From positions 7,751 through 71,750 of the forward strand of contig CAKRTQ010000012.1 in NCBI GenBank assembly GCA_934402395.1: a DNA stretch of 64,000 nt. Direction: 5' to 3'. Origin of the DNA: an uncultured Eubacteriales bacterium. Its GTDB lineage: Bacteria; Bacillota; Clostridia; Oscillospirales; CAG-272. The position numbers and the translations under genes were made by a program. The notes beneath the pieces were generated by a model that did no database searches, was not told where the DNA came from, and saw only the letters and a program-made list of their open reading frames with translations. Within the stretch, counting starts at the first letter, position 1. Each line of letters starts with the position of its first letter. Positions 5,582-15,315 of this stretch are shown here, one piece after another.

Positions 5582-6860
5582 ATGGACAAGGCATCACAAC
5601 ATCGGTTCGGTACAGAATATGGTAATATACGGTTACGATACCGGTAACTGGGGCGATCTTCTCATATCGTTCAACGGTCAGAGCATAGCATATGACGGCA
5701 TAGGCAACCCCGGGACATGGAACGGAAGCGCCCTTACATGGCAGGGCAGACGGCTCATGTCGTACGGCTCTAATACTTATACCTACAATGCCGACGGTAT
5801 AAGAACGAGCAAGACCGTAAACGGAGTAGAGCATATATATCACCTTTCGGGAACGCAGATACTTGACGAGGAATGGACCGAAGGAAACATCCACCATCTC
5901 ATGGTGTATGTTTACGATGCATCCGGTCAGCCGATAGGTATAAGTCATTATACATACAACGGAACGCTCGTATCTGAAAATGACTATCTGCTCGTTTCCA
6001 ACATCCAGGGCGACATAATCGGTATCTACGACTCCACCAGGACCCGCGTTGTAACGTATGTCTATGATGCATGGGGGCGTATACTCTCTACCACCGGGAC
6101 CGGCGCTAATACCATCGGCGTATATAACCCGTTCAGATATCGTGGTTACTACTACGATACCGAAACCAGCCTCTACTACCTCAACAGCAGATACTACGAT
6201 CCCAACGTAGGCAGATTCCTTAATGCAGACGACTACATAAACGCCAACGGCGACCTTATCGGATTCAATATGTTCGCTTATTGCGGCAATAATCCGGTGA
6301 TGCTTACTGATTATTATGGATACAGCGCTTATAAGTGCGGTCACAATAACAATCCGGATAAATGCAGATATTGCAAGAAAGAGCGCGAAATTGCTCAAAT
6401 GGCGGGAGTCCGGTATTCGCAGAGTAGAATTCAAGAAGATGCCCAAGTTGATGATGATACACCTATAAACTATAATGGTGCATATTCACAAGCTCAAACT
6501 ATAACATCATTGACAACTAACGCTTTTGCATTATTGCTTACGGTAACATCTCAAGGTGTTGATACTATAGCATCTATGTATGTGACCGGGTTTGGATATC
6601 TTGTAACAGCACCAATAAATATAGTGCAAACATGGAACAATCCGAATTTAGGTACCAAAGGAAAGGTGCTGCTAACTACATATGATGTGATGGTTGCTGC
6701 GAGCGGTGTTGGCATGGTATTCGGTATGGCGAACTGGTGGAATGTTACAGGTTGGGCGGCGTTGGGGATTTCTGTTGTTTATACAGTAGTCACGTATGCT
6801 GTCGAGTATAAATTACAAGAGTATTTAGAGAGAAGGTACTACAATGAATACGCACGATAA
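5562..6860 (+). pseudogene. orphan Rhs C-terminal cassette 2 (core fragment plus distinct hydrophobic toxin tip CT2), no credible start
   Basis: From ~5605 it is near-identical at DNA level to 3595-4284 of the main gene. The only start is a GTG inside the hairpin. After NNPVM the C-terminus diverges and contains several hydrophobic segments. Confidence 0.7.
5605..6302 (+). repeat. Rhs core repeat, copy 2 (approximate bounds)
   Basis: See copy 1. The central part is more diverged. Confidence 0.85.
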
Positions 6861-7484: not shown

Positions 7485-8372
7485 GGACACATCTCTAATA
7501 CTTATACCTACAATGCCGACGGTATAAGAACGAGCAAGACTGTCTATGGTGTCAAACACATATATCATCTCTCCGGAACGCAGATACTCAGTGAAGAGTG
7601 GACGGAGGACAGAGTTCAGCACATACTGATATTTGTCTATGACGATTCGGGACAGCCGATAGGAATGTCGCACTTTGAAGATGAAGTCAAAAACGGTGAC
7701 TACCTGTTTGCGAAGAACGTCCAGGGTGATATTACCGCTGTTTATGATGCAAATGGTACATGCCTTGTAACGTATACCTACGATGCGTTGGGCAACACCA
7801 GAGTGAGGTACTCAAACGGCGGTGCCTCAACTGCGGCAAGATATAACCCGTTCAGATATCGCGGTTACTATTACGATACCGAAACGAGCCTTTACTACCT
7901 CAACAGCAGGTATTATGATCCTGCAGTCGGCAGATTCCTTAATGCGGATGGTTCTGTAAACGCCAACGGCGACCTTATCGGATTCAATATGTTCGCGTAT
8001 TGCGGAAACAACCCTGTAAACAGAGTTGACCGCACGGGACAATTTTGGAGTGAAATTTGGGAGTTTGCCAAAATAGCCGTTGCCGAAATTGGAAAAGCCA
8101 TGGAAGTTATGTCTCCCGCTTACGCTGGGTGTGGTGGAGTAGCTGTAGCTGATGGGCCTCTTCCTTTCGGAGATATTATTGCAGCAGCAGTCATAGTATT
8201 GTTAACCGCAGGTGCTATAGGATATGGAATTTATCAAGCAGTACAGGCTCCAGCTATTTCTGTTCCAAAAGTTGAAGAAAAAGATGAAGCAATACCTGCA
8301 CCTCCGCCTACTCCAACAGTAATTTATAGATATAGCGGAACGTATGATTTTAATTGCCGCCTCGACATCTGA
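7485..8372 (+). pseudogene. orphan Rhs C-terminal cassette 3 (start-less; degenerate and frameshifted upstream remnant; tip CT3 probably truncated)
   Basis: The frame opens after TAA at 7482-7484 and the first ATG is at 7665. NTYTYNADGIRTSKTV...RYYDPAVGRFLNADG...CGNNPVNRVDRTGQ is homologous to the main gene. A YD-like remnant at 7414-7480 is in another frame. Confidence 0.65.
7497..8017 (+). repeat. Rhs core repeat, copy 3 (shorter, approximate bounds)
   Basis: Homology begins at aatacttatacctacaatgccgacggtataagaacgagcaag. Confidence 0.8.
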
Positions 8373-8650
8373 CAAGTATAATGACAAGTTCTTTATGTTA
8401 GCTAAAGGAATGCTTACTGTTCAGCAGTTTATTGAACAGGAGAATGCGTAATTAGGGCAAAAATAAACACAGCAGGGAGAGTGCTCCGGATGGCATACGC
8501 TATTCTGAACGCTCTCCCGATTTTTTGATTTCAACGTTCCAAATCTAAAAAATGAATTTAACGGTAGGCGTTACATTTAAATGATAAGATGGTGGGTGCC
8601 GTTAGGGGACAAACCGCGGGATACTGAAATTCGTTTTTCAATGTTTTGCT

Positions 8651-8930
8651 GTGTGAAAAAAGTATTGGAGGTAACGCGGTCTGCGCAGACGAACAGAAAA
8701 TAATCAAAAGTCAAAAATCCTGATGTTCGGTGCGAAAAGACGAGCTCCAAAGCGTTTTTGAGTATGACAGCGCTGCGGAAGGAACAAAAATCTAAAAAAG
8801 CAAGTTCCTGTGCGAAAAGACGGGGGTCTGAGCGTTTTTCAATATGACAGCACCGGGAGGAGCAAAAGCCAAAACTAAAGGTTGGTGCAAAAAGAAACCA
8901 CGTATTGTGATATAATACGATCTGACAGAC
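8651..8930 (+). repeat. degenerate tandem repeat, about four copies of a ~75-80-nt unit upstream of rtcB
   Basis: Units start at about 8651, 8730, 8810 and 8885. Each has the form GTG(C/T)(G/A)AAAA(A)GA...(T)CTG/ATGACAG(A/C). Copies 2 and 3 are the most similar: GTGCGAAAAGACG..GCGTTTTT.A.TATGACAGC. Confidence 0.6.
8908..8916 (+). promoter_or_regulatory. extended -10 promoter element (TGATATAAT) for rtcB
   Basis: TGnTATAAT consensus lies ~100 nt upstream of the rtcB ATG. No good -35 was found. Confidence 0.5.
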
Positions 8931-9018
8931 GGGACCTGCCGAAGGCGGGACACCGACTTCGATTTTACGGGTTCAATTCCCGGCGATGCCTTGCTATCAG
9001 AATGAAAGGAGCGGCACA

Positions 9019-10227
9019 ATGATTGAAATCAAAGGAAAGGTAAATACAGCTATCTGTTATGCAGCGGTTGTAGAGGACGAAGCGATCGAACAGATCCGCA
9101 GAATGTGTGACTATGATTTCACAGCAGGATCTCAAATACGGATCATGCCCGATGTACATGCCGGAAAAGGCTGTACGATCGGCACCACTATGACGATCAC
9201 TGATAAAGCGGTTCCCAATATCGTTGGTGTCGATATCGGTTGTGGTATGTATACTGTTGAGCTGGGTAAGGTGGATGTTGATTTTGAAAAAGTCGATGCT
9301 GCCGCTCATTATATTCCCAGCGGAAGAGATGTTTGGGAAGGGCGCATGGAGCGCTTTGACCTGACCGGGCTTCGCTGCTATAGAAACTTGAAACAGGCAA
9401 AGCGCTTGGAGAGGAGCCTGGGGACACTGGGCGGAGGAAACCATTTTATCGAGATTGATACTGCTTCGGATGGCACAAAGTATTTGGTGATCCATTCCGG
9501 CAGTCGTAACCTGGGCAAGCAGGTGGCGGAGTTCTATCAGTCTTTAGCTATCGATTTGAATGCCGGTAAGGCAGATTATTTCGAGCGTCGGGATGAGCTG
9601 ATCCGTACATATAAGGAGCAGGGCCGCAGGGCTGAGATCCAGACCGCATTGAAGGCTATGGAGAAGGAATGGGCGGCAAAAGAGCCGACGATCCCCGCAG
9701 ACCTTTGCTATCTGTACGGAACCTACTTGGATGACTACCTCCACGATGTAGAGATCTGCCAGCAATTTGCAAGGCGCAGCCGTGAAAGAATGGCGGAGAT
9801 CCTTTTGGAAAAGACCGGAATGACTGCGATCTCTTCCTTCCACACCATCCACAATTATATTGATACGAAGGAAATGATCCTCCGCAAAGGCTCTATTGCG
9901 GCTCATTACGGAGAACTTGTCCTGATTCCCATCAATATGCGGGACGGCAGTGTGTTGGCTCGCGGCAAAGGGAATCCGGAATGGAATTATTCAGCCCCGC
10001 ATGGAGCCGGCCGTCTTATGTCTCGTGCAAAGGCACGCGAAACGTTGGATTTAGAGGTGTATAAGAAGACAATGGAGGGTATCTACACAACGTCGGTCAA
10101 TGAAGCCACCATCGATGAAGCACCCATGGCTTACAAGTCGCTTGAAGACATTATCGATGTCATCAGAGAGTCTGTCGATGTGATCGAGTTACTAAAACCT
10201 ATTTACAATTTTAAGGCATCTGAGTGA
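9019..10227 (+). CDS. rtcB: RNA 3'-phosphate/5'-OH ligase RtcB
   Basis: AAAGGAG SD. Family motifs present: IMPDVHAGKGCTIG, GGGNHFIEID, HSGSRNLG, IPINMRDGS, APHGAGR. Length 402 aa. Confidence 0.9.
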   Translation: MIEIKGKVNTAICYAAVVEDEAIEQIRRMCDYDFTAGSQIRIMPDVHAGKGCTIGTTMTITDKAVPNIVGVDIGCGMYTVELGKVDVDFEKVDAAAHYIPSGRDVWEGRMERFDLTGLRCYRNLKQAKRLERSLGTLGGGNHFIEIDTASDGTKYLVIHSGSRNLGKQVAEFYQSLAIDLNAGKADYFERRDELIRTYKEQGRRAEIQTALKAMEKEWAAKEPTIPADLCYLYGTYLDDYLHDVEICQQFARRSRERMAEILLEKTGMTAISSFHTIHNYIDTKEMILRKGSIAAHYGELVLIPINMRDGSVLARGKGNPEWNYSAPHGAGRLMSRAKARETLDLEVYKKTMEGIYTTSVNEATIDEAPMAYKSLEDIIDVIRESVDVIELLKPIYNFKASE

Positions 10228-10264
10228 TAAAACGCTCCTGCGCCGTCTGATTGGAGGAGTTGAA

Positions 10265-10459
10265 ATGTTGAATCGTTTGAAAAATGAGGCGAATATCGCT
10301 TGCACAGAAAATGGCGCAGTTACCAACGCAAGAACACTTAGCATATCTCTGAGTTCGGGCGTTACGATGATCCGGTACAGTCACGCAAGGGAAACCGAGT
10401 GTGGCGGTGTAGGAATAAACGTTTGCATCCTTGGATCCGGTGAGGCTTTATTTATATAA
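10265..10459 (+). pseudogene. short ORF whose first ~25 aa look like the N-terminus of a TROVE/DUF2828-type protein; possible gene remnant
   Basis: Strong GGAGGAG SD lies 5 nt before the ATG. MLNRLKNEANIACTENGAVTNARTLS carries the TENGA-type N-terminal motif, after which similarity is lost in all frames. 64 aa. Confidence 0.3.
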
Positions 10460-10773
10460 ATCCGATGAACGGAAATAATGAAGTCGCACAATATACAGGT
10501 GTGGATCGGCTGATCGGGTTTACATCAATGAAGTATGGACCGGCGGTCGGAGGGAAGTCCCTCTGCGGTCCCGGGCTGAGAAGCTCGGAGGCGGAATGCC
10601 GGTACTGTCAGACGCCCCGATAATTAAATTCACACTGCTTTACACGGTATAGTGTTTGCCGGATGATCCAAAGTCCCGCAATACTATAAATAGAACACGA
10701 TTTGTACGGCTTATTCGCTAATGGGTACTTTAGATTTAAAGAGAATCGGTCTTATGAGTCGTGTTCACTGTAG

Positions 10774-10839
10774 AACGCAGCTAGTAAAGCTTATTTCGCC
10801 GTATGGCTTTTGATCAGATTCAGTTTTACGATCCGCGTT
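10774..10839 (+). ncRNA. candidate structured RNA module 1 (CAGCUAG-helix-CUUAUU type)
   Basis: Outer helix AACGC (10774-78)/GCGTT (10835-39). Conserved AGCTA internal loop. Inner helix GTAAAG (10784-89)/TTTTAC (10824-29). Confidence 0.4.
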
Positions 10840-10845
10840 CGGTAG

Positions 10846-10905
10846 CAGCTAGTGGCGCTTACTGCTTTTAAAGCGTTCTATCAGTTAGAAAAGTGCCGCG
10901 ATTTC
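10846..10905 (+). ncRNA. candidate structured RNA module 2
   Basis: CAGCTAG (10846-52). Inner helix GTGGCG (10852-57)/TGCCGC (10894-99) covaries with modules 1 and 3. The outer helix is not obvious. Confidence 0.35.
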
Positions 10906-10913
10906 GCAAAAAA

Positions 10914-11040
10914 GCAAACAGCTAGCCGGGCTTACTTCTTCAGTAGGATCCGATCGCAGAGGTTCGATTCCTCTCGCTCCAACGGAGTGTAGCTCAGTGG
11001 CAGAGCGTCGGAATGAAATCAGTCCGGCAATTCAGTTTGC
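10914..11040 (+). ncRNA. candidate Y-RNA-like (YrlA-like) RNA: long-range stem enclosing a circularly permuted tRNA-like domain
   Basis: Outer helix GCAAAC/GTTTGC (10914-19/11035-40). Inner helix GCCGGG/TCCGGC (10925-30/11023-28). Cloverleaf core at 10949-11012 has T arm AGAGG-TTCGATT-CCTCT, a loop-closed acceptor CGCTCC-AAC-GGAGTG, TA, D arm GCTC-AGTGGCA-GAGC, and anticodon-stem equivalent TCCGA/TCGGA. Confidence 0.6.
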
Positions 11041-11066
11041 GCATTGTCTTATGGGGAGGAGAAAAA

Positions 11067-13106
11067 ATGTTCGATCAGTATTTCCGGAAATTTTTGTTTT
11101 CCAAGGGGACTTTAGTGAGCAGTGCAACGAGTCCGGATGCATTTGCGGCTCGTTTTGCCCTTGCCAATATGTTCAATATCAGCATTACGCGCGGTCAGCA
11201 GTATGCACATGAGGATATGATCTCTTTTGTTGCTGATATGCTCGGAGAATGCGTTCCGCAGCCTTTTTACCGTAATTTCCCCAAATCCGTAAGAGAACTT
11301 GCCCCCAATCAACTGTTGTTTGATCAGTTGTGCCATTATAGCATTACATACGGACTCGGTAACTTTGCGGAAGCCGGCTACTCTCTCTTTGAGGAAGAGT
11401 TTGAGAGACTTGCTTTTAAGGAAAACGTTGAGATCAAGAAGTTCATAATTCTCACGGAATCGGAGGCGCATGAACGGCTTGCCGAATATGTTGAGGATAT
11501 GCTGAAGGGGACGCGCCCTTTGAGCGATGTGCAGTATGAGCTTGTAAAGACTTATATCGATAAGTGCAGCTACGAGATCAAGAACTGTGCATGCAAGGAT
11601 ACTGCCATACGGCTTTTGCTCGATACCGAAAATGCCAAGTATGCAAGGTTCCTTGCCCTTTCGGATGTTATAAAGCTTGTTGATACCATGAACTACGAGG
11701 GTTATAACAACACGAATATCAAGAAACTGAACCTTCGCAATCAGGACCGCAGATTCATTGCCAGAGTGATCAACGCTATCTTTGATGGCGGTCGCATAAA
11801 TGTCAGAGAGTGTTTTGAAAAGAAAGCGGTCTGGTGCGGGTTGCTTCACCATATTCACTATCACCCCAGGATTCCCGAAGCCGAAAGATTTGTTGCGCTT
11901 ATGCGGGGCAATGAAAACTGGTCGGTGTACTCCGGGTTTGAGCGTGCAATGACGGCTCGTGATATCAGAGCGGCAGTTACCTGCCTTCTTGAAGGCAAGG
12001 GATCCGGTGCGCTTTTCAGACATCTCAACTATATTCTCAGCAGGTGCACGGATGAGGAGGATGTGGCATTTGTTATGGAATCGCTCCATACCAAGAATGC
12101 TGTCGTGCTCATTCAGCTGATCATGCAATATGCGAATTATGTAGCCGATGCCGACCGCAAATTTAAGTTTACACGTTATAATAAGCTCAAGATACATACG
12201 GAAACTGACGAGGAGCAGTCCAAGAGGAAGTCTGCGCTTCCTTCCGAACGGGTGGATGAGCTTTCGGCGGTTATGTTTGCGAATCTCAGGAAGCTTCTCG
12301 CCGGCAGGCTCGGCAAAGTATATGTTGCTTCCGATATGTATAATATTGCGCTTCCTATTCAGGAAAACACCTCTAACGGCGGATATGGCGTTCTTCCCAA
12401 GGGTTCCAGACTCCACATCGAAGAAGGTAAAAAGATCCGCGCATTTACCTATTGGGAAAAGGTAAATGATATTGACCTGAGTGCCATCGGAATTACCGAA
12501 GACGGAAGGCAGGTAGAGTTTTCCTGGAGGAGCATGTTCAAATTGCAGTCCAATGAGATCGCTTTTTCCGGCGATGAAACCGCCGGTTATGGCGGTGGAT
12601 CCGAGTATTTTGACGTTGATGTAGCTCTTTTTAAGAAAAACCACCCCGAAATCAAGTACATGGTTTTCTGCAACAATGTTTTTTCGCGTGCTTACTTTTC
12701 AAAATGCCTGTGCAAAGCCGGTTATATGCTTCGTGATGTTCAGGATTCCGGAGAGGTGTTTGAGCCCAAAACGGTAAAGTCTTCCTTTGTAATCAATTGC
12801 GACAGTACGTTCGCATATCTGTTCGGGATCGATCTTGAAAAGAATGATTTCGTTTGGCTGAATATGTCATTTGGCAACAACGCCACCGTGGCAGGCAGCA
12901 CTTCCATGAAGTTTCTTATTGATTACTTCAAAATCACTTCTGTTATTAACATGGGTATGCTGTTTGAAATGCTTGCGACCGAGATCGTGGAGTCTCCCGC
13001 GAACGCTGACGTAGTGGTGTCCGATGAAGAGCTTGACGGGTGTGAGAATGCCGAGGTGATCAGATCCTGCGATTTTGAGAAGGTAATGGCATTGCTCAGC
13101 CGATGA
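11067..13106 (+). CDS. 679-aa protein: divergent TROVE/Ro60-like helical region fused to a TerD-fold C-terminal domain (tentative)
   Basis: GGGGAGGAG SD. TROVE-like strings: FEKKAVWCGLLHHIHYHP, and GSGALFRHLNYILSR (compare the Ro ALLRNL segment). The C-terminus LPKGSRLHIEEG..WEKVNDIDLSAIGITEDGRQVEFSW...FSGDETAGYGGGSEYFDVDV...IKYMVFCNNVFS matches the TerD pattern (DLDxSA...SGDNxTGEGxGDDE...). The coding call is secure; the function is inferred. Confidence 0.85.
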   Translation: MFDQYFRKFLFSKGTLVSSATSPDAFAARFALANMFNISITRGQQYAHEDMISFVADMLGECVPQPFYRNFPKSVRELAPNQLLFDQLCHYSITYGLGNFAEAGYSLFEEEFERLAFKENVEIKKFIILTESEAHERLAEYVEDMLKGTRPLSDVQYELVKTYIDKCSYEIKNCACKDTAIRLLLDTENAKYARFLALSDVIKLVDTMNYEGYNNTNIKKLNLRNQDRRFIARVINAIFDGGRINVRECFEKKAVWCGLLHHIHYHPRIPEAERFVALMRGNENWSVYSGFERAMTARDIRAAVTCLLEGKGSGALFRHLNYILSRCTDEEDVAFVMESLHTKNAVVLIQLIMQYANYVADADRKFKFTRYNKLKIHTETDEEQSKRKSALPSERVDELSAVMFANLRKLLAGRLGKVYVASDMYNIALPIQENTSNGGYGVLPKGSRLHIEEGKKIRAFTYWEKVNDIDLSAIGITEDGRQVEFSWRSMFKLQSNEIAFSGDETAGYGGGSEYFDVDVALFKKNHPEIKYMVFCNNVFSRAYFSKCLCKAGYMLRDVQDSGEVFEPKTVKSSFVINCDSTFAYLFGIDLEKNDFVWLNMSFGNNATVAGSTSMKFLIDYFKITSVINMGMLFEMLATEIVESPANADVVVSDEELDGCENAEVIRSCDFEKVMALLSR

Positions 13107-13207
13107 AAGCCTTCTGCTTGACGAAAAGCAGGTGCGACTGCATCCGGGGAATAAACAGGGCTTGGGTTCAGAACATACCCGGTAGCTGAAAAAACAAATA
13201 TGCATCT

Positions 13208-13248
13208 GCGGGGTACTAAAAACTCAAAATGAGTTTTTAGTACCCCGC
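13208..13248. terminator. long perfect hairpin (19-bp stem) of the AAAAACTCA/TGAGTTTTT-apex family
   Basis: GCGGGGTACTAAAAACTCA-AAA-TGAGTTTTTAGTACCCCGC. Confidence 0.6.
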
Positions 13249-13254
13249 AAAAAT

Positions 13255-13295
13255 AGCGGCTGTAAAAAAACTCATTTGAGTTTTTTACGGCCGCT
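13255..13295 (+). terminator. second hairpin of the same family, followed by a T-tract; terminator of the rtcB-TROVE unit
   Basis: AGCGGCTGTAAAAAAACTC-ATTT-GAGTTTTTTACGGCCGCT followed by ATTTTTTG. Confidence 0.65.
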
Positions 13296-13471
13296 ATTTT
13301 TTGACTGTGATCCGAAAAGCCCGGAGCTTATGGACTGTTCGGTTTTTCTGTGAAATGATCGTTTTTTCCGATCTTTACCCAACCGCGCGATGCTTTTGCG
13401 TGTCATAAAAACAGAACGGCACGCTGTAAAGTGCCGCATATCAACCTTGCCGGGCAGGTCAACGTTCAACA

Positions 13472-13834
13472 ATGAAAGATTTAAAATTATACAGCTCAGA
13501 CTTTTATTCATACACAAAAATGCTTTTGAGCGGGAACACATTCCGTATCATGATATCCAAGCGTCTGCTGATGCGTCCGCTGATCCCCGCGTGGGTATTC
13601 CTCTTTTTCATTATGATGATCCCCGGCAAGGTGTTTTTCTGGATAGCCGGATTTCCGTGTTTAGGGCTGTATGCCGTTTTTTTGCTCGGTAACTACCCGT
13701 ATTGGGAAGCTTGCAGCGTAAAGAAGCTGCCTTTTGTTTTGTGGAATGCGATCTGGGTCCTGTTTTTGAAGCTGATGACGATACCGGTGCTGAATTTGTT
13801 GGAGGTGATCATAAAGTGGACTTTTTATATATGA
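13472..13834 (+). CDS. small hydrophobic membrane protein (hypothetical)
   Basis: 120 aa with 3 hydrophobic segments. The 3' end overlaps the start of the next gene. SD is weak. Confidence 0.4.
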   Translation: MKDLKLYSSDFYSYTKMLLSGNTFRIMISKRLLMRPLIPAWVFLFFIMMIPGKVFFWIAGFPCLGLYAVFLLGNYPYWEACSVKKLPFVLWNAIWVLFLKLMTIPVLNLLEVIIKWTFYI

Positions 13835-15315
13835 ATTCACGTGAGCCTGCCGTTGAGCTGGACGTTCAAAAAGAGATCGTCTCCGGGGATGCTTTTTTCG
13901 GTAAGGCAAAGGAGTATGTCACTGGCGACCGTGAGACTTTGCTTTACCGGCAGGAATTTTTCCGCGATGTGCTTCAAATAAGTGAATTGCCGGAATTTCT
14001 GACGGCACTTCATGCGAAGCTCAACGAAATTTCACCCTTGATGCGGGGAGGGCAGGGCGCGGCGGGACGCGAGGAGAAGCTGCGCGATCTGCTTTATCCG
14101 GTCGTTTATATCGAGCTTGTGGAGCTAATTTGCAGATATCTGGAGCCGATCGCCGACAGATTGACCGCGCGGTCCTTGCTGGCGCTTTATCACATGGCGG
14201 ACAACGAAAAGCGGTCCGCGGAGTACGGCAGGATCGGCGAATATTATATGAAAAACAGCGCCCGGTTGCGTTCCGTACACAGCGTTACCGTGGGCATAAA
14301 TCTGACACCCATGTTTGAGCCTAAAGAGGCGGGGATCGTTGCGCTCAATTCGGAAGAATTCAGCTCGGGCGACTTTTGGGATCGGGTGATACGGATGGAT
14401 CTCGCCAAGGACGATTTTCATTGTATTGCGCCTCTGACGGTCATTGACAAAAAGCTCGGATATCAGGACAGTCAGCGCATGAATCATGCGCTGCTGAAGG
14501 GACTGGATGCCGTTGTCGGTGATGGTCTGCGGCATTGCAGCAAGAGCATAGAAAAATATCTGAAGGATGCATTGAAAAAATTCTATGAGTGGTCCGGGTC
14601 TCTCGGCTTTGTGACAGAAGCGGTCAAACGCATCACGGAGCTGAAGGAGAAGAGAATACCGCTTGCCTTTCCGACCGTCAGCGACCGCTTCTTGTTTGAT
14701 GTGGATTCCCTGTATGACGATTCATTGTGCCGTAAAAAGGACAAAAAAGACATCGTGCCGAATACTGTGCGTCTGGAACCGGATGTATGCTGTTATATTT
14801 TGACGGGACCGAACAGCGGCGGAAAATCGGTATTTCTGAACTCGCTTGCAGCCGCTCAGTATTATTTTCAACTGGGGATGCCGATCCCCGCGAAGGCGGC
14901 GTCGCTCCCGATATGCGATGCCGTTTTCAAAATCTCGGTCGAGGAGCAGGCAAATGCGGATCAGGTCGGCAGATTCGAGAAGGAGTGCATAACTCTTTCC
15001 GGCGTGCTGAAAAAATTCACTCCCCGCAGTCTGGCACTGATAGACGAAGCATTCACCTCCACCTCGGCAGAGGAAGCTGTGCCGATCGCCGCGAATTTTA
15101 TACGTGAGATATGCCGCATTGGGGGAAAATGCCTGTTTGTGACACATTATCATGAATTGGACGGATCGCAGCCGTCGGTGCGGCAATGCGGAGGGGCGGT
15201 AGACTATCTGCACACGGAAAGCGGCGGAGAACGCAGGACGTACACAGTTCTGCCCGGCAGCTCCGATCCGCACAGCGATGCGCATAACATTGCAAAAAAA
15301 TACGGTTTGCTGTGA
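13816..15315 (+). CDS. MutS-family ATPase domain protein (MutS domain V; no Smr or mismatch-binding domain seen)
   Basis: GGAGGTG SD lies 8 nt before the GTG at 13816. Walker A is LTGPNSGGKS, Walker B is LALIDEAFTSTS, and THYHEL is present. Confidence 0.8.
   Translation: MDFLYMNSREPAVELDVQKEIVSGDAFFGKAKEYVTGDRETLLYRQEFFRDVLQISELPEFLTALHAKLNEISPLMRGGQGAAGREEKLRDLLYPVVYIELVELICRYLEPIADRLTARSLLALYHMADNEKRSAEYGRIGEYYMKNSARLRSVHSVTVGINLTPMFEPKEAGIVALNSEEFSSGDFWDRVIRMDLAKDDFHCIAPLTVIDKKLGYQDSQRMNHALLKGLDAVVGDGLRHCSKSIEKYLKDALKKFYEWSGSLGFVTEAVKRITELKEKRIPLAFPTVSDRFLFDVDSLYDDSLCRKKDKKDIVPNTVRLEPDVCCYILTGPNSGGKSVFLNSLAAAQYYFQLGMPIPAKAASLPICDAVFKISVEEQANADQVGRFEKECITLSGVLKKFTPRSLALIDEAFTSTSAEEAVPIAANFIREICRIGGKCLFVTHYHELDGSQPSVRQCGGAVDYLHTESGGERRTYTVLPGSSDPHSDAHNIAKKYGLL

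Follow-up and report, generated by a model that had tools for sequence, protein, structure and literature searches.

Y-RNA-like RNA modules linked to the gene for a large, putatively TerD-like protein in Clostridia and phages

Ro60, or Rsr, is a protein with a TROVE and a vWA domain that is accompanied by the Y RNAs YrlA and YrlB; in Salmonella these genes form the operon rsr-yrlBA-rtcBA. To our knowledge, only two pairs of a scaffold protein and a dedicated tRNA-like RNA have been described beside RNA ligases: Ro60 with its Y RNA, and a Band-7 protein with b7a-tRNA. We analyzed a locus of related design in a 64,000-nucleotide (nt) stretch of DNA, here called the window, from an uncultured Eubacteriales bacterium (GTDB lineage Bacteria; Bacillota; Clostridia; Oscillospirales; CAG-272; GenBank assembly GCA_934402395.1, contig CAKRTQ010000012.1, positions 7,751 to 71,750). 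On the forward strand of the window, the RNA ligase gene rtcB is followed by a spacer with three tandem RNA modules and then by the gene for a protein of 679 amino acids (aa). What is conserved is the array of one to five RNA modules together with the gene for the ~680-aa protein; rtcB is a recurrent but facultative neighbor and not an obligate part of the module. We give about even chances to the reading that we prefer, namely, that the pair forms an undescribed Ro/Y-RNA-like ribonucleoprotein, analogous but not demonstrably homologous to Ro60/Y RNA, which acts in tRNA/RNA repair or in RNA conflict.

Ro60/Y RNA and Band-7/b7a-tRNA have both been proposed as RtcB cofactors (bioRxiv 10.1101/312249, citing Burroughs and Aravind 2016). 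The second system, as cited there, is an SPFH/Band-7 protein paired with b7a-tRNA in RtcB neighborhoods, the b7a-tRNA resembling a complete tRNA. Band-7/b7a-tRNA is a precedent for unrelated proteins filling the Ro/Y-RNA role, and our locus shares with it a non-TROVE, scaffold-type protein with a dedicated tRNA-like noncoding RNA near RtcB. It differs in that there is no Band-7 match by Pfam and in that the tRNA-like part is permuted, optional, and carried on a stem platform in tandem arrays. YrlA was defined in a survey restricted to genomes with an annotated TROVE protein (PMC4201824), which therefore could not have found the RNAs described here; YrlA-based screens of TROVE-encoding genomes only would miss them as well.

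The spacer (10228-11066, 839 nt) folds better than shuffled sequence (z = -4.0) and contains three modules, all on the + strand. M1 (10773-10840) has a stem P1 (GAACGC/GCGUUC), the loop AGCUAG, a stem P2 (GUAAAGCU/AGUUUUAC), the string UUAUUUC, and the 3' loop GAUCC. M2 (10841-10911) has the same AGCUAG loop, a P2 formed by GUGGCGCUU and AAGUGCCGC, UUACUGC, the 3' loop GAUUUCG, and a weak P1. M3 (10914-11052) is a P1/AGCUAG/P2/UUACUUC platform with a tRNA-like insert. This insert (10951-11012) is a circularly permuted tRNA-like domain that consists of an anticodon-stem-like stem, a T arm (GAGGUUCGAUUCCUC), a closed acceptor hairpin, and a D arm (UAGCUCAGUGGCAGAGC). The sole open reading frame (ORF) of note in the spacer, of 64 aa (10265-10459), has no Pfam match and is not conserved in other loci; for both reasons we dropped the idea, raised by a "TENGA" motif, that it is a remnant of a DUF2828/TROVE N terminus. 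An initial annotation of the window, made by a model from the sequence, had described the spacer as a helix-dense region with no credible ORF, three tandem RNA-like modules, and a permuted tRNA cloverleaf, and this description held up.

The modules were scored with two covariance models, R1 and R2. With R1, M3 reached 97 bits (E = 4e-20) as a member of the training set of that model, and M1, which lies outside the set, reached 26.7 bits (E = 0.006); M1 is the only module scored by a model that was not built from it. With R2, M1 and M2 scored 51 and 50 bits, but both belong to the R2 training set, so these scores are not independent. Because that set included M2, this module is otherwise identified by its motifs and by helices read by eye. 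The proximal part of the spacer (10228-10772, +) is also structured and without a credible ORF, with long predicted hairpins, for example, at about 10640-10770; the z score of -4.0 refers to the whole spacer, and the model found no extra module there. A fourth, degenerate module suspected by eye at about 10500-10625 (GCUGAUCGGGUUUACAUC ... CCCCGAUAAUU) gained no support from a short-module covariance model run with its filters off.

For comparison we used 80 GTDB loci, all from Clostridia, whose encoded homologues are 49-73% identical to the 679-aa protein (loci carry labels in the style of L001). Throughout, the form of a module is P1, AGCUAG, P2, UUACUUC, a variable or tRNA-like insert, P2', GAUAUCG, and P1'. 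The stem is formed by the module's own 5' and 3' ends, and P1 and P2 are separated by an asymmetric internal loop with AGCUAG on the 5' side and GAUAUCG on the 3' side. Apart from the tRNA-like part, sequence conservation is seen in the two strands of this loop, as AGCUA(G/A) and GAUAUCG, and in UUACUUC, which is single stranded and directly follows P2. A variable apical region caps the platform. In about half of the loci, as in M3, it is a tRNA-like domain of the YrlA type, without a free CCA end; many loci have shorter modules, 55-85 nt long, with a variable loop or hairpin in place of the tRNA-like insert.

Structure and covariation were examined in an alignment of 23 tRNA-like modules, including M3, from 23 loci. 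There are six helices: P1, P2, a 3-bp anticodon-like stem, the T arm, a closed 7-bp acceptor-like hairpin, and the D arm. Of the cells assigned to them, 96.3% were paired, versus 37-45% for controls with slid partners. Compensatory changes occurred in 26 of the 33 pairs, and none of 500 shuffles reached the observed values. The T-loop and D-loop nucleotides that form the tRNA elbow were invariant across the 23 loci. An independent MAFFT alignment of 30 short modules recovered P1 and P2, with compensatory changes in 13 of 14 pairs. These alignments establish both the RNA structure and its covariation.

The comparison of the spacer RNAs with YrlA in the initial annotation is borne out for the tRNA-like core, but below the family threshold. 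In a permissive scan, the M3 domain matches positions 23-87 of Rfam YrlA (RF02553) with 35 bits (E = 5.7e-5), and the gathering score is 69. The YrlA core was matched in all seven other loci tested (32-49 bits), always below 69. Against the full YrlA model, the best full-length alignment (L049) matched only in the core, and the Rsr-binding stem was deleted or mismatched. At gathering thresholds no Rfam family matched anywhere in the window, and ARAGORN found no tRNA or tmRNA in it, the tRNA-like domain of M3 included. The effector domain of YrlA (T arm, closed acceptor hairpin, D arm, and anticodon-like stem) is present here, with covariation. YrlA is also expected to have a TROVE protein within ~4 kb on the same strand (PMC4201824); in the window there is none, the neighbors being RtcB, the 679-aa protein, a fragment of an RHS protein, and a protein with MutS domain V.

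The design nevertheless parallels that of Y RNAs. Both kinds of RNA are closed by a stem of the 5' and 3' ends that bears conserved, presumably protein-binding, nucleotides (PMC4201824; bioRxiv 10.1101/312249). Both can carry an apical, circularly permuted tRNA mimic with a T arm, a closed acceptor hairpin, a D arm, and no CCA. In both, RNAs with and without the tRNA-like part occur in tandem, on the same strand as the adjoining gene for a large helical-repeat protein. Unlike in YrlA, the platform here is AGCUAG/UUACUUC/GAUAUCG, which is unrelated to the Rsr-binding stem. The evidence supports the conclusion that the RNAs of the spacer are Y-RNA-like and that their tRNA mimic is of the YrlA type, lacking a free CCA end. 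In locus L040, ARAGORN calls a "tRNA-Ser(gct)" at 5758-5856 that overlaps a tRNA-like module (R1 match at 5788-5924), so the modules are open to misannotation as tRNA genes.

R1 found modules beside the gene and on the same strand in ~71 of the 80 GTDB loci, from gut and rumen Clostridia, in agreement with the earlier pairing of the RNAs with the downstream 679-aa gene. Nine loci were R1 negative, and in four of these the upstream DNA ends early. We also scanned 867 kb with the strict motif AGCTA[AG]N6TTA[CT]TT[CT]. There were 120 matches on the gene strand and 0 on the opposite strand, and all but one of the 120 (119) lay no more than 700 nt 5' or 300 nt 3' of the gene, with a median distance from motif to gene start of 165 nt. 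The strict motif occurred once in 28 loci, twice in 29, and three times in 11. The reverse test began with the RNA: an 18-nt RNA motif was found in 42 metagenome contigs. In 33 of them the gene follows on the same strand at a distance of 82-406 nt, two have no room for the gene, and seven lack it. A first scan of the metagenomes with a gapped pattern gave no match. A scan of IMG/VR with a 15-base RNA motif gave 43 matches, all due to chance; none was a module by the covariance model, and none had the gene.

Full-length relatives of the 679-aa protein were found in phages by tblastn and by Foldseek against BFVD, and all four phage loci inspected carry tandem modules of the same architecture. 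In Rhodococcus phage Weasels2, gp266 (25.7% identity) is followed by four tandem modules, the third of which is tRNA-like (R1, 70.5 bits; E = 1e-14); their loops are AUUAAG and CGCUCA, and UUACUUC is exact. Five tRNA genes immediately precede this copy, and a phage RtcB gene follows at 3.1 kb. In Lactobacillus phage LpeD, two AGUUAU-N7-UUACUUC modules stand just upstream of orf166, with a tRNA cluster and a MazF-like gene nearby. Mycobacterium phage WXIN has five tandem modules upstream of the coding sequence at 3131 of L179, with CUUUCAU instead of UUACUUC. The human-gut phage MT835874 has about four modules with UUCCUUC before the gene start at 2097 of L178, and two tRNA genes upstream. In these phages the loop letters change together with the protein while the architecture persists. 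The linkage of RNA and gene is reciprocal and extends across phyla and to phages. We also observed that genuine Ro-like (TROVE) genes of the Streptomyces phages TomSawyer and Sham (L089/L090) lie among tRNA genes, as do the homologues in Weasels2 and LpeD.

One alternative takes the position of the modules at face value: they would be autoregulatory protein- or ligand-binding elements in the 5' untranslated region of the 679-aa gene, where binding would stabilize P1, whose GC-rich stem with a U-run would terminate transcription or tune expression in another way, and the RNA would have no function in trans. The gap between the last module and the Shine-Dalgarno sequence and start codon is 5-30 nt in most Clostridial loci, so this module must belong to the mRNA leader. 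The median distance of 165 nt points the same way, as does a run of 5-7 U directly after P1 in about half of the loci. However, in the other half, including the window, no U-run follows P1. The modules are self-contained and occur in one to five tandem copies, and the invariant tRNA elbow in their insert would be superfluous in a simple operator. They can also lie downstream of the gene, as in three Clostridial loci (L044, L053, and L060) and in phage Weasels2. Finally, orphan modules exist, since four of the seven gene-less contigs in the reverse test hold real modules (L136, L137, L145, and L171; R1, 41-48 bits), with no homologue of the protein on the fetched DNA of up to 14 kb. We consider a leader that acts in cis and nothing more to be unlikely. 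That the architecture persists as the loops change and that the array can stand on either side of the gene both speak for a co-evolving RNA-protein complex over a purely positional leader. The leader and ribonucleoprotein readings are not mutually exclusive; cotranscription with a leaky terminator is compatible with both.

The 679-aa gene (11067-13106, +) is preceded by the Shine-Dalgarno sequence GGGGAGGAG. An AlphaFold2 model of its product (pLDDT 79) has an N-terminal alpha/beta part (aa 1-130), a 12-helix alpha-solenoid (131-356), a beta-hairpin linker (365-420), a TerD-like beta-sandwich (~455-602), and a small C-terminal alpha/beta domain. Pfam gave no family for the window protein at E <= 0.1; among ten distant homologues it gave no TROVE or DUF2828 at E <= 1, and its sole match to any family was a hint of TerD with an E of 0.097 (P0264). 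Searches of PDB sequences with the single sequence and with a 46-sequence profile gave no match, nor did PADLOC for the 679-aa protein. Foldseek against the PDB, with the full-length model and with a model of aa 1-445, gave no match at E <= 0.001, only generic solenoids. In PHROGs the protein matches phrog_33734 (E = 9e-23), whose function is unassigned there. Its residues 286-605 align with positions 388-710 of the NCBIfam MXAN_6230/SCO0854 RING family model (NF041916; E = 2.8e-26), at a score of 92 bits where the cutoff is 600. What the two families share is the distal solenoid and the TerD-like part; the match does not extend to the full length with the N-terminal RING. The family comprises at least 1786 representatives of 50%-identity clusters at E <= 1e-3. 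That it has no Pfam model and that its RNA family is absent from Rfam is a gap in annotation.

In TerF, a TerD domain is joined to a vWA domain, and the ter operon is associated with stress and with the inhibition of phages. We compared the family with real terD, terE, terZ, and terF gene products and Streptomyces TerD, which were fetched with a TerD sequence as bait only. With hhalign, the family profile aligned with this set over 120 columns (aa 467-598; E = 3.5e-5, probability 72%), and the isolated C-terminal domain gave a similar result (E = 4.6e-5, probability 68%). DIDLS is aligned with DLDAS, and SGDETAGYGGGSE with TGDNRTGEGDGDDE, so that the DxDxS and SGDxTxG motifs are included. On these alignments we regard the C-terminal beta-sandwich as TerD-like, a moderately supported assignment, with the acidic calcium-binding cluster GDGDDE of TerD reduced to GGGSE. 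Source annotations call some homologues "TerD family protein" or "tellurium resistant like protein." The fused N-terminal region of 450 aa is lacking in ter proteins, and in the neighbor clusters examined there were no ter-operon neighbors beside the pair. Neither the window protein nor the ten distant homologues reached the family threshold of Pfam TerD (PF02342), and TerD was absent from the Foldseek PDB matches of the full-length model.

In the initial annotation the same protein was taken for a TROVE protein in which a TerD-like domain replaces vWA. Read strictly, this would make it a true, highly divergent Ro60 orthologue and its RNAs bona fide Y RNAs. The resemblance in design is real: a ~350-aa alpha-helical repeat precedes a beta domain of cation-binding type, tandem RNAs closed by stems, with a YrlA-type tRNA-like module among them, flank the gene, and rtcB and tRNA arrays occur in the neighborhood, as they do for rsr and phage Ro-like genes. 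With a human Ro60 sequence as bait only, we assembled a test set of four annotated phage Ro-like proteins, whose identity to human Ro60 is 33-40%. Against these, the 46-sequence family profile gave an hhalign probability of 0.16% (E = 0.37), and the sole local alignment was the stretch that had suggested TROVE in the first place (WCGLLHHIHY versus GWTHRDLLRLAHPK). Neither TROVE nor DUF2828 was found by Pfam in 11 members of the family. Ro60 was not among the best 50 Foldseek PDB matches, although Foldseek is weak on solenoids and aa 65-120 were modeled with low confidence. At the C terminus, where Pfam gave no match to a vWA/MIDAS domain, the protein has an all-beta sandwich. The RNA's protein-binding stem has nothing in common with that of YrlA, and the host range here is Clostridia plus phages of Firmicutes and Actinobacteria. 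Since neither Pfam nor the profile-profile comparison nor the fold search gave a TROVE match, TROVE membership is not supported. A distant TROVE homology of a solenoid is conceivable, and orthology to Ro60 seems to us the least probable of the explanations considered. What survives of the earlier reading is the Shine-Dalgarno sequence, the Y-RNA-like array, the TerD-like C terminus, and a recurrent link to rtcB. The Ro60/TROVE-like strings can be read in the sequence but have no statistical weight, and the swap of vWA for TerD in a TROVE protein is not supported. The resemblance to Ro/Y RNA is better seen as one of design and, probably, of role, by analogy and not by demonstrated membership.

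That link to rtcB is found in a minority of loci. The gene is nearby in ~6 of the 80 GTDB loci and in 3 of the 33 metagenome loci (L141, L157, and L159), or ~8%, plus one phage. In three loci (L011, L014, and L020) rtcB is upstream of the pair, and its product is 74-76% identical to the RtcB of the window. In L005 rtcB is immediately downstream and its product is only 53% identical, so this appears to be a separate arrangement. L063 has a 211-residue RtcB match 126 nt upstream of the gene, and L030 has rtcB 4.4 kb upstream, with 39% identity. The differences among these arrangements suggest at least four separate juxtapositions, in our judgment too many for chance and too few for an obligate partner. 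The association with rtcB appears to recur in independent lineages, with rtcB as an optional member. In L011 (5222-5476) and L014 (5165-5419), a small ORF with the look of an XRE-type helix-turn-helix protein stands between rtcB and the RNAs; similar ORFs of ~85-140 aa lie immediately 5' of the RNA array, on the same strand, in L013, L015, L017, L023, L030, and L082 also, and from their sequence may encode a local regulator.

Genes for tRNAs are another recurrent feature of the surroundings. In L042 (3070-8955) the RNA array and the gene are within an array of 28 tRNA genes on the same strand, with 19 upstream and 9 downstream. The tRNA arrays just downstream of the pair in L043 and L049 correspond to the downstream part of the L042 array, and a tRNA gene is directly adjacent in L019, L046, L057, and L038. 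Both features are shared with Ro60/Y RNA: rtcB is a recurrent neighbor there, and the phage copies in our set lie in tRNA-rich regions, as do phage Ro-like genes. The remaining neighbors vary, the commonest clusters, judged from sequence, being ordinary ABC, two-component, transporter, and XRE-like genes.

Such variable contexts, with no conserved protein partner and with copies in phages, also suit a type III toxin-antitoxin or abortive-infection system, in which a processed RNA array would neutralize the downstream protein, as in ToxIN, and a leaky terminator would set the ratio. As in ToxIN, CptIN, and TenpIN, which occur in bacteria and phages, one protein gene is directly preceded by tandem RNA repeats, and a terminator-like element often separates the two; there are 1-3 modules upstream of the gene in Clostridia and ~4-5 in phages WXIN and MT835874. 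The low GC content and the RHS fragment around the unit in the window, and the MazF-like gene that adjoins the LpeD copy, could be read in the same way. The components themselves fit poorly. The modules are 65-140 nt long with self-closed stems, two to four times larger than the 34-36-nt pseudoknot repeats of type III antitoxins; they fold independently and may carry a tRNA mimic. The tRNA-like insert, the siting inside tRNA operons, and the 28 loci with a single module are hard to explain as well. The protein, at 680 aa, is large and showed no nuclease or ToxN/AbiQ-like fold: neither Foldseek nor PADLOC gave a match to a ToxN/AbiQ-type endoribonuclease. We consider this explanation very unlikely.

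For the preferred reading, a Ro/Y-RNA-like ribonucleoprotein, we infer physical binding, RNA processing, and a repair function from sequence comparisons. The alpha-solenoid/TerD-like protein would bind the P1-loop-P2-UUACUUC platform, and the apical tRNA-like domain would offer a tRNA elbow to RtcB, to tRNA-processing or -modifying enzymes, or to exonucleases. The particle might then serve tRNA/RNA repair, quality control, or the protection of tRNA as a scaffold or gate, as is thought for Ro60/Y RNA and Band-7/b7a-tRNA beside RtcB. The RNAs would probably be cotranscribed with the gene and then cut out; in about half of the loci P1 and the U-run would terminate most transcripts, leaving RNA in excess over mRNA. 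For phages, a copy of their own may serve to protect or repair the tRNA pool. In its widest form the proposal is of a widespread, undescribed class of bacterial and phage ribonucleoproteins in which a non-TROVE solenoid/TerD protein sits on arrays of Y-like RNAs with a UUACUUC platform and an optional tRNA mimic, a convergent or unrecognizably diverged counterpart of Ro60/Y RNA that serves tRNA/RNA repair with RtcB in gut and rumen Clostridia and defense of the tRNA pool against host anticodon nucleases in phages. We hold this wider version more tentatively, at somewhat less than even chances.

Several observations weigh against a ribonucleoprotein with a repair function. Five of the R1-negative loci have adequate upstream sequence and no detectable module, and the four orphan modules have no adjacent gene. 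The closeness of the last module to the Shine-Dalgarno sequence in most Clostridial loci also fits a cis-acting leader. Foldseek recognized no RNA-binding fold in the N-terminal two-thirds of the protein. More than 90% of the loci are without rtcB, and apart from that minority the neighbor clusters of the fetched loci include no conserved protein. With rtcB in <10% of the loci and no other conserved neighbor, the case for a repair role draws on a minority association and on analogy.

In full-text searches of the literature, which carry some risk of missing a prior mention, no paper came up that connects TerD-type proteins with Y RNAs, Ro60, or tRNA-like RNAs, and within that reach the architecture is undescribed; the initial annotation had not recognized it as a described one either. 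What is new is the protein family and the RNA family; a scaffold protein with a dedicated tRNA-like RNA in the context of RNA repair or tRNAs is of a known kind. If the reading is correct, a third, unrelated protein family keeps the same tRNA-like module on a different platform, which would mark the tRNA mimic as the selected functional part, and the pair would be an independent system in which to find the binding partner of YrlA-type mimics. It is tractable: four cultured isolates (the rumen Lachnospiraceae strains C6A11 [L014], AC2031 [L033], and AC2029 [L082] and Eubacterium ruminantium FB3002 [L028]) and three cultivable phages (Weasels2, LpeD, and WXIN) carry the pair.

The remaining features concern the borders of the unit in the window. 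The rtcB ORF (8986/9019-10227, +) is intact, and gene callers chose the ATG at 9019 on identical contigs, which gives an RNA 3'-phosphate/2',3'-cyclic-phosphate ligase of 402 aa. It was identified by Pfam RtcB (E = 1e-53) and by the PHROG for tRNA-splicing ligase (E = 2.6e-125), and its translation has the metal-binding and His-GMP motifs VDIGCG (DIGCG), GGGNHF, HSGSR, HN, and SAPHGAGR (PHGAGR). The extended -10-like element TGATATAAT, a possible promoter for the unit, is present as an exact match 5' of rtcB (8908-8916, +), yet its two occurrences in the window against 0.44 expected are not statistically unusual, and a consensus scan found no -35 element for it. Just 5' of this putative promoter, at 8705-8851, are two 67-nt direct repeats that are 72% identical and spaced by 80 nt; both contain UGCGAAAAGACG and AGCGUUUUU-N-A-N-UAUGACAGC, and none of the other fetched loci has a counterpart. 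The rtcB leader (8922-9018) includes a T-arm-like hairpin, CGGGUUCAAUUCCCG, at about 8968-8982, resembling a tRNA 3' fragment; it could be the remnant of an integration site, or nothing. As a structured RNA the leader was rejected, its folding being not significantly different from that of shuffled sequence (z = -1.4).

At the other end, two consecutive 20-bp hairpins (13207-13302, +), the second followed by a U-run, would form the terminator or terminators that close the unit (minimum free energy, -64.1 kcal/mol; z = -13.8); they are the two long hairpins noted in the initial annotation. Its remark that the unit is richer in AT than the DNA to the right is likewise correct: GC content is 0.45-0.47 over the unit and the 8 kb leftward, versus ~0.52 to the right of 14 kb. 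Directly 5' of the unit is the gene for a C-terminal fragment of an RHS-repeat/YD-shell protein (7665-8372). Because GC content is lower in the left 14 kb (~0.45) than in the DNA to the right (~0.52), this part, with its RHS fragment, suggests an acquired island.

To the right of the unit, a 537-aa protein encoded at 13702-15315 has MutS domain V only (an ABC-type ATPase; E = 1.6e-21), and TetR, HATPase, MerR, and AraC-type genes follow. The MutS-V gene is not conserved beside the pair; the one exception is L041, with a weak, partial match (30% identity) that lies ~4 kb upstream on the other strand. Matches to the c-di-GMP-I riboswitch lie a few kilobases downstream of the pair in L023 (6530-6625) and L043 (6486-6561) and are probably unrelated to it.

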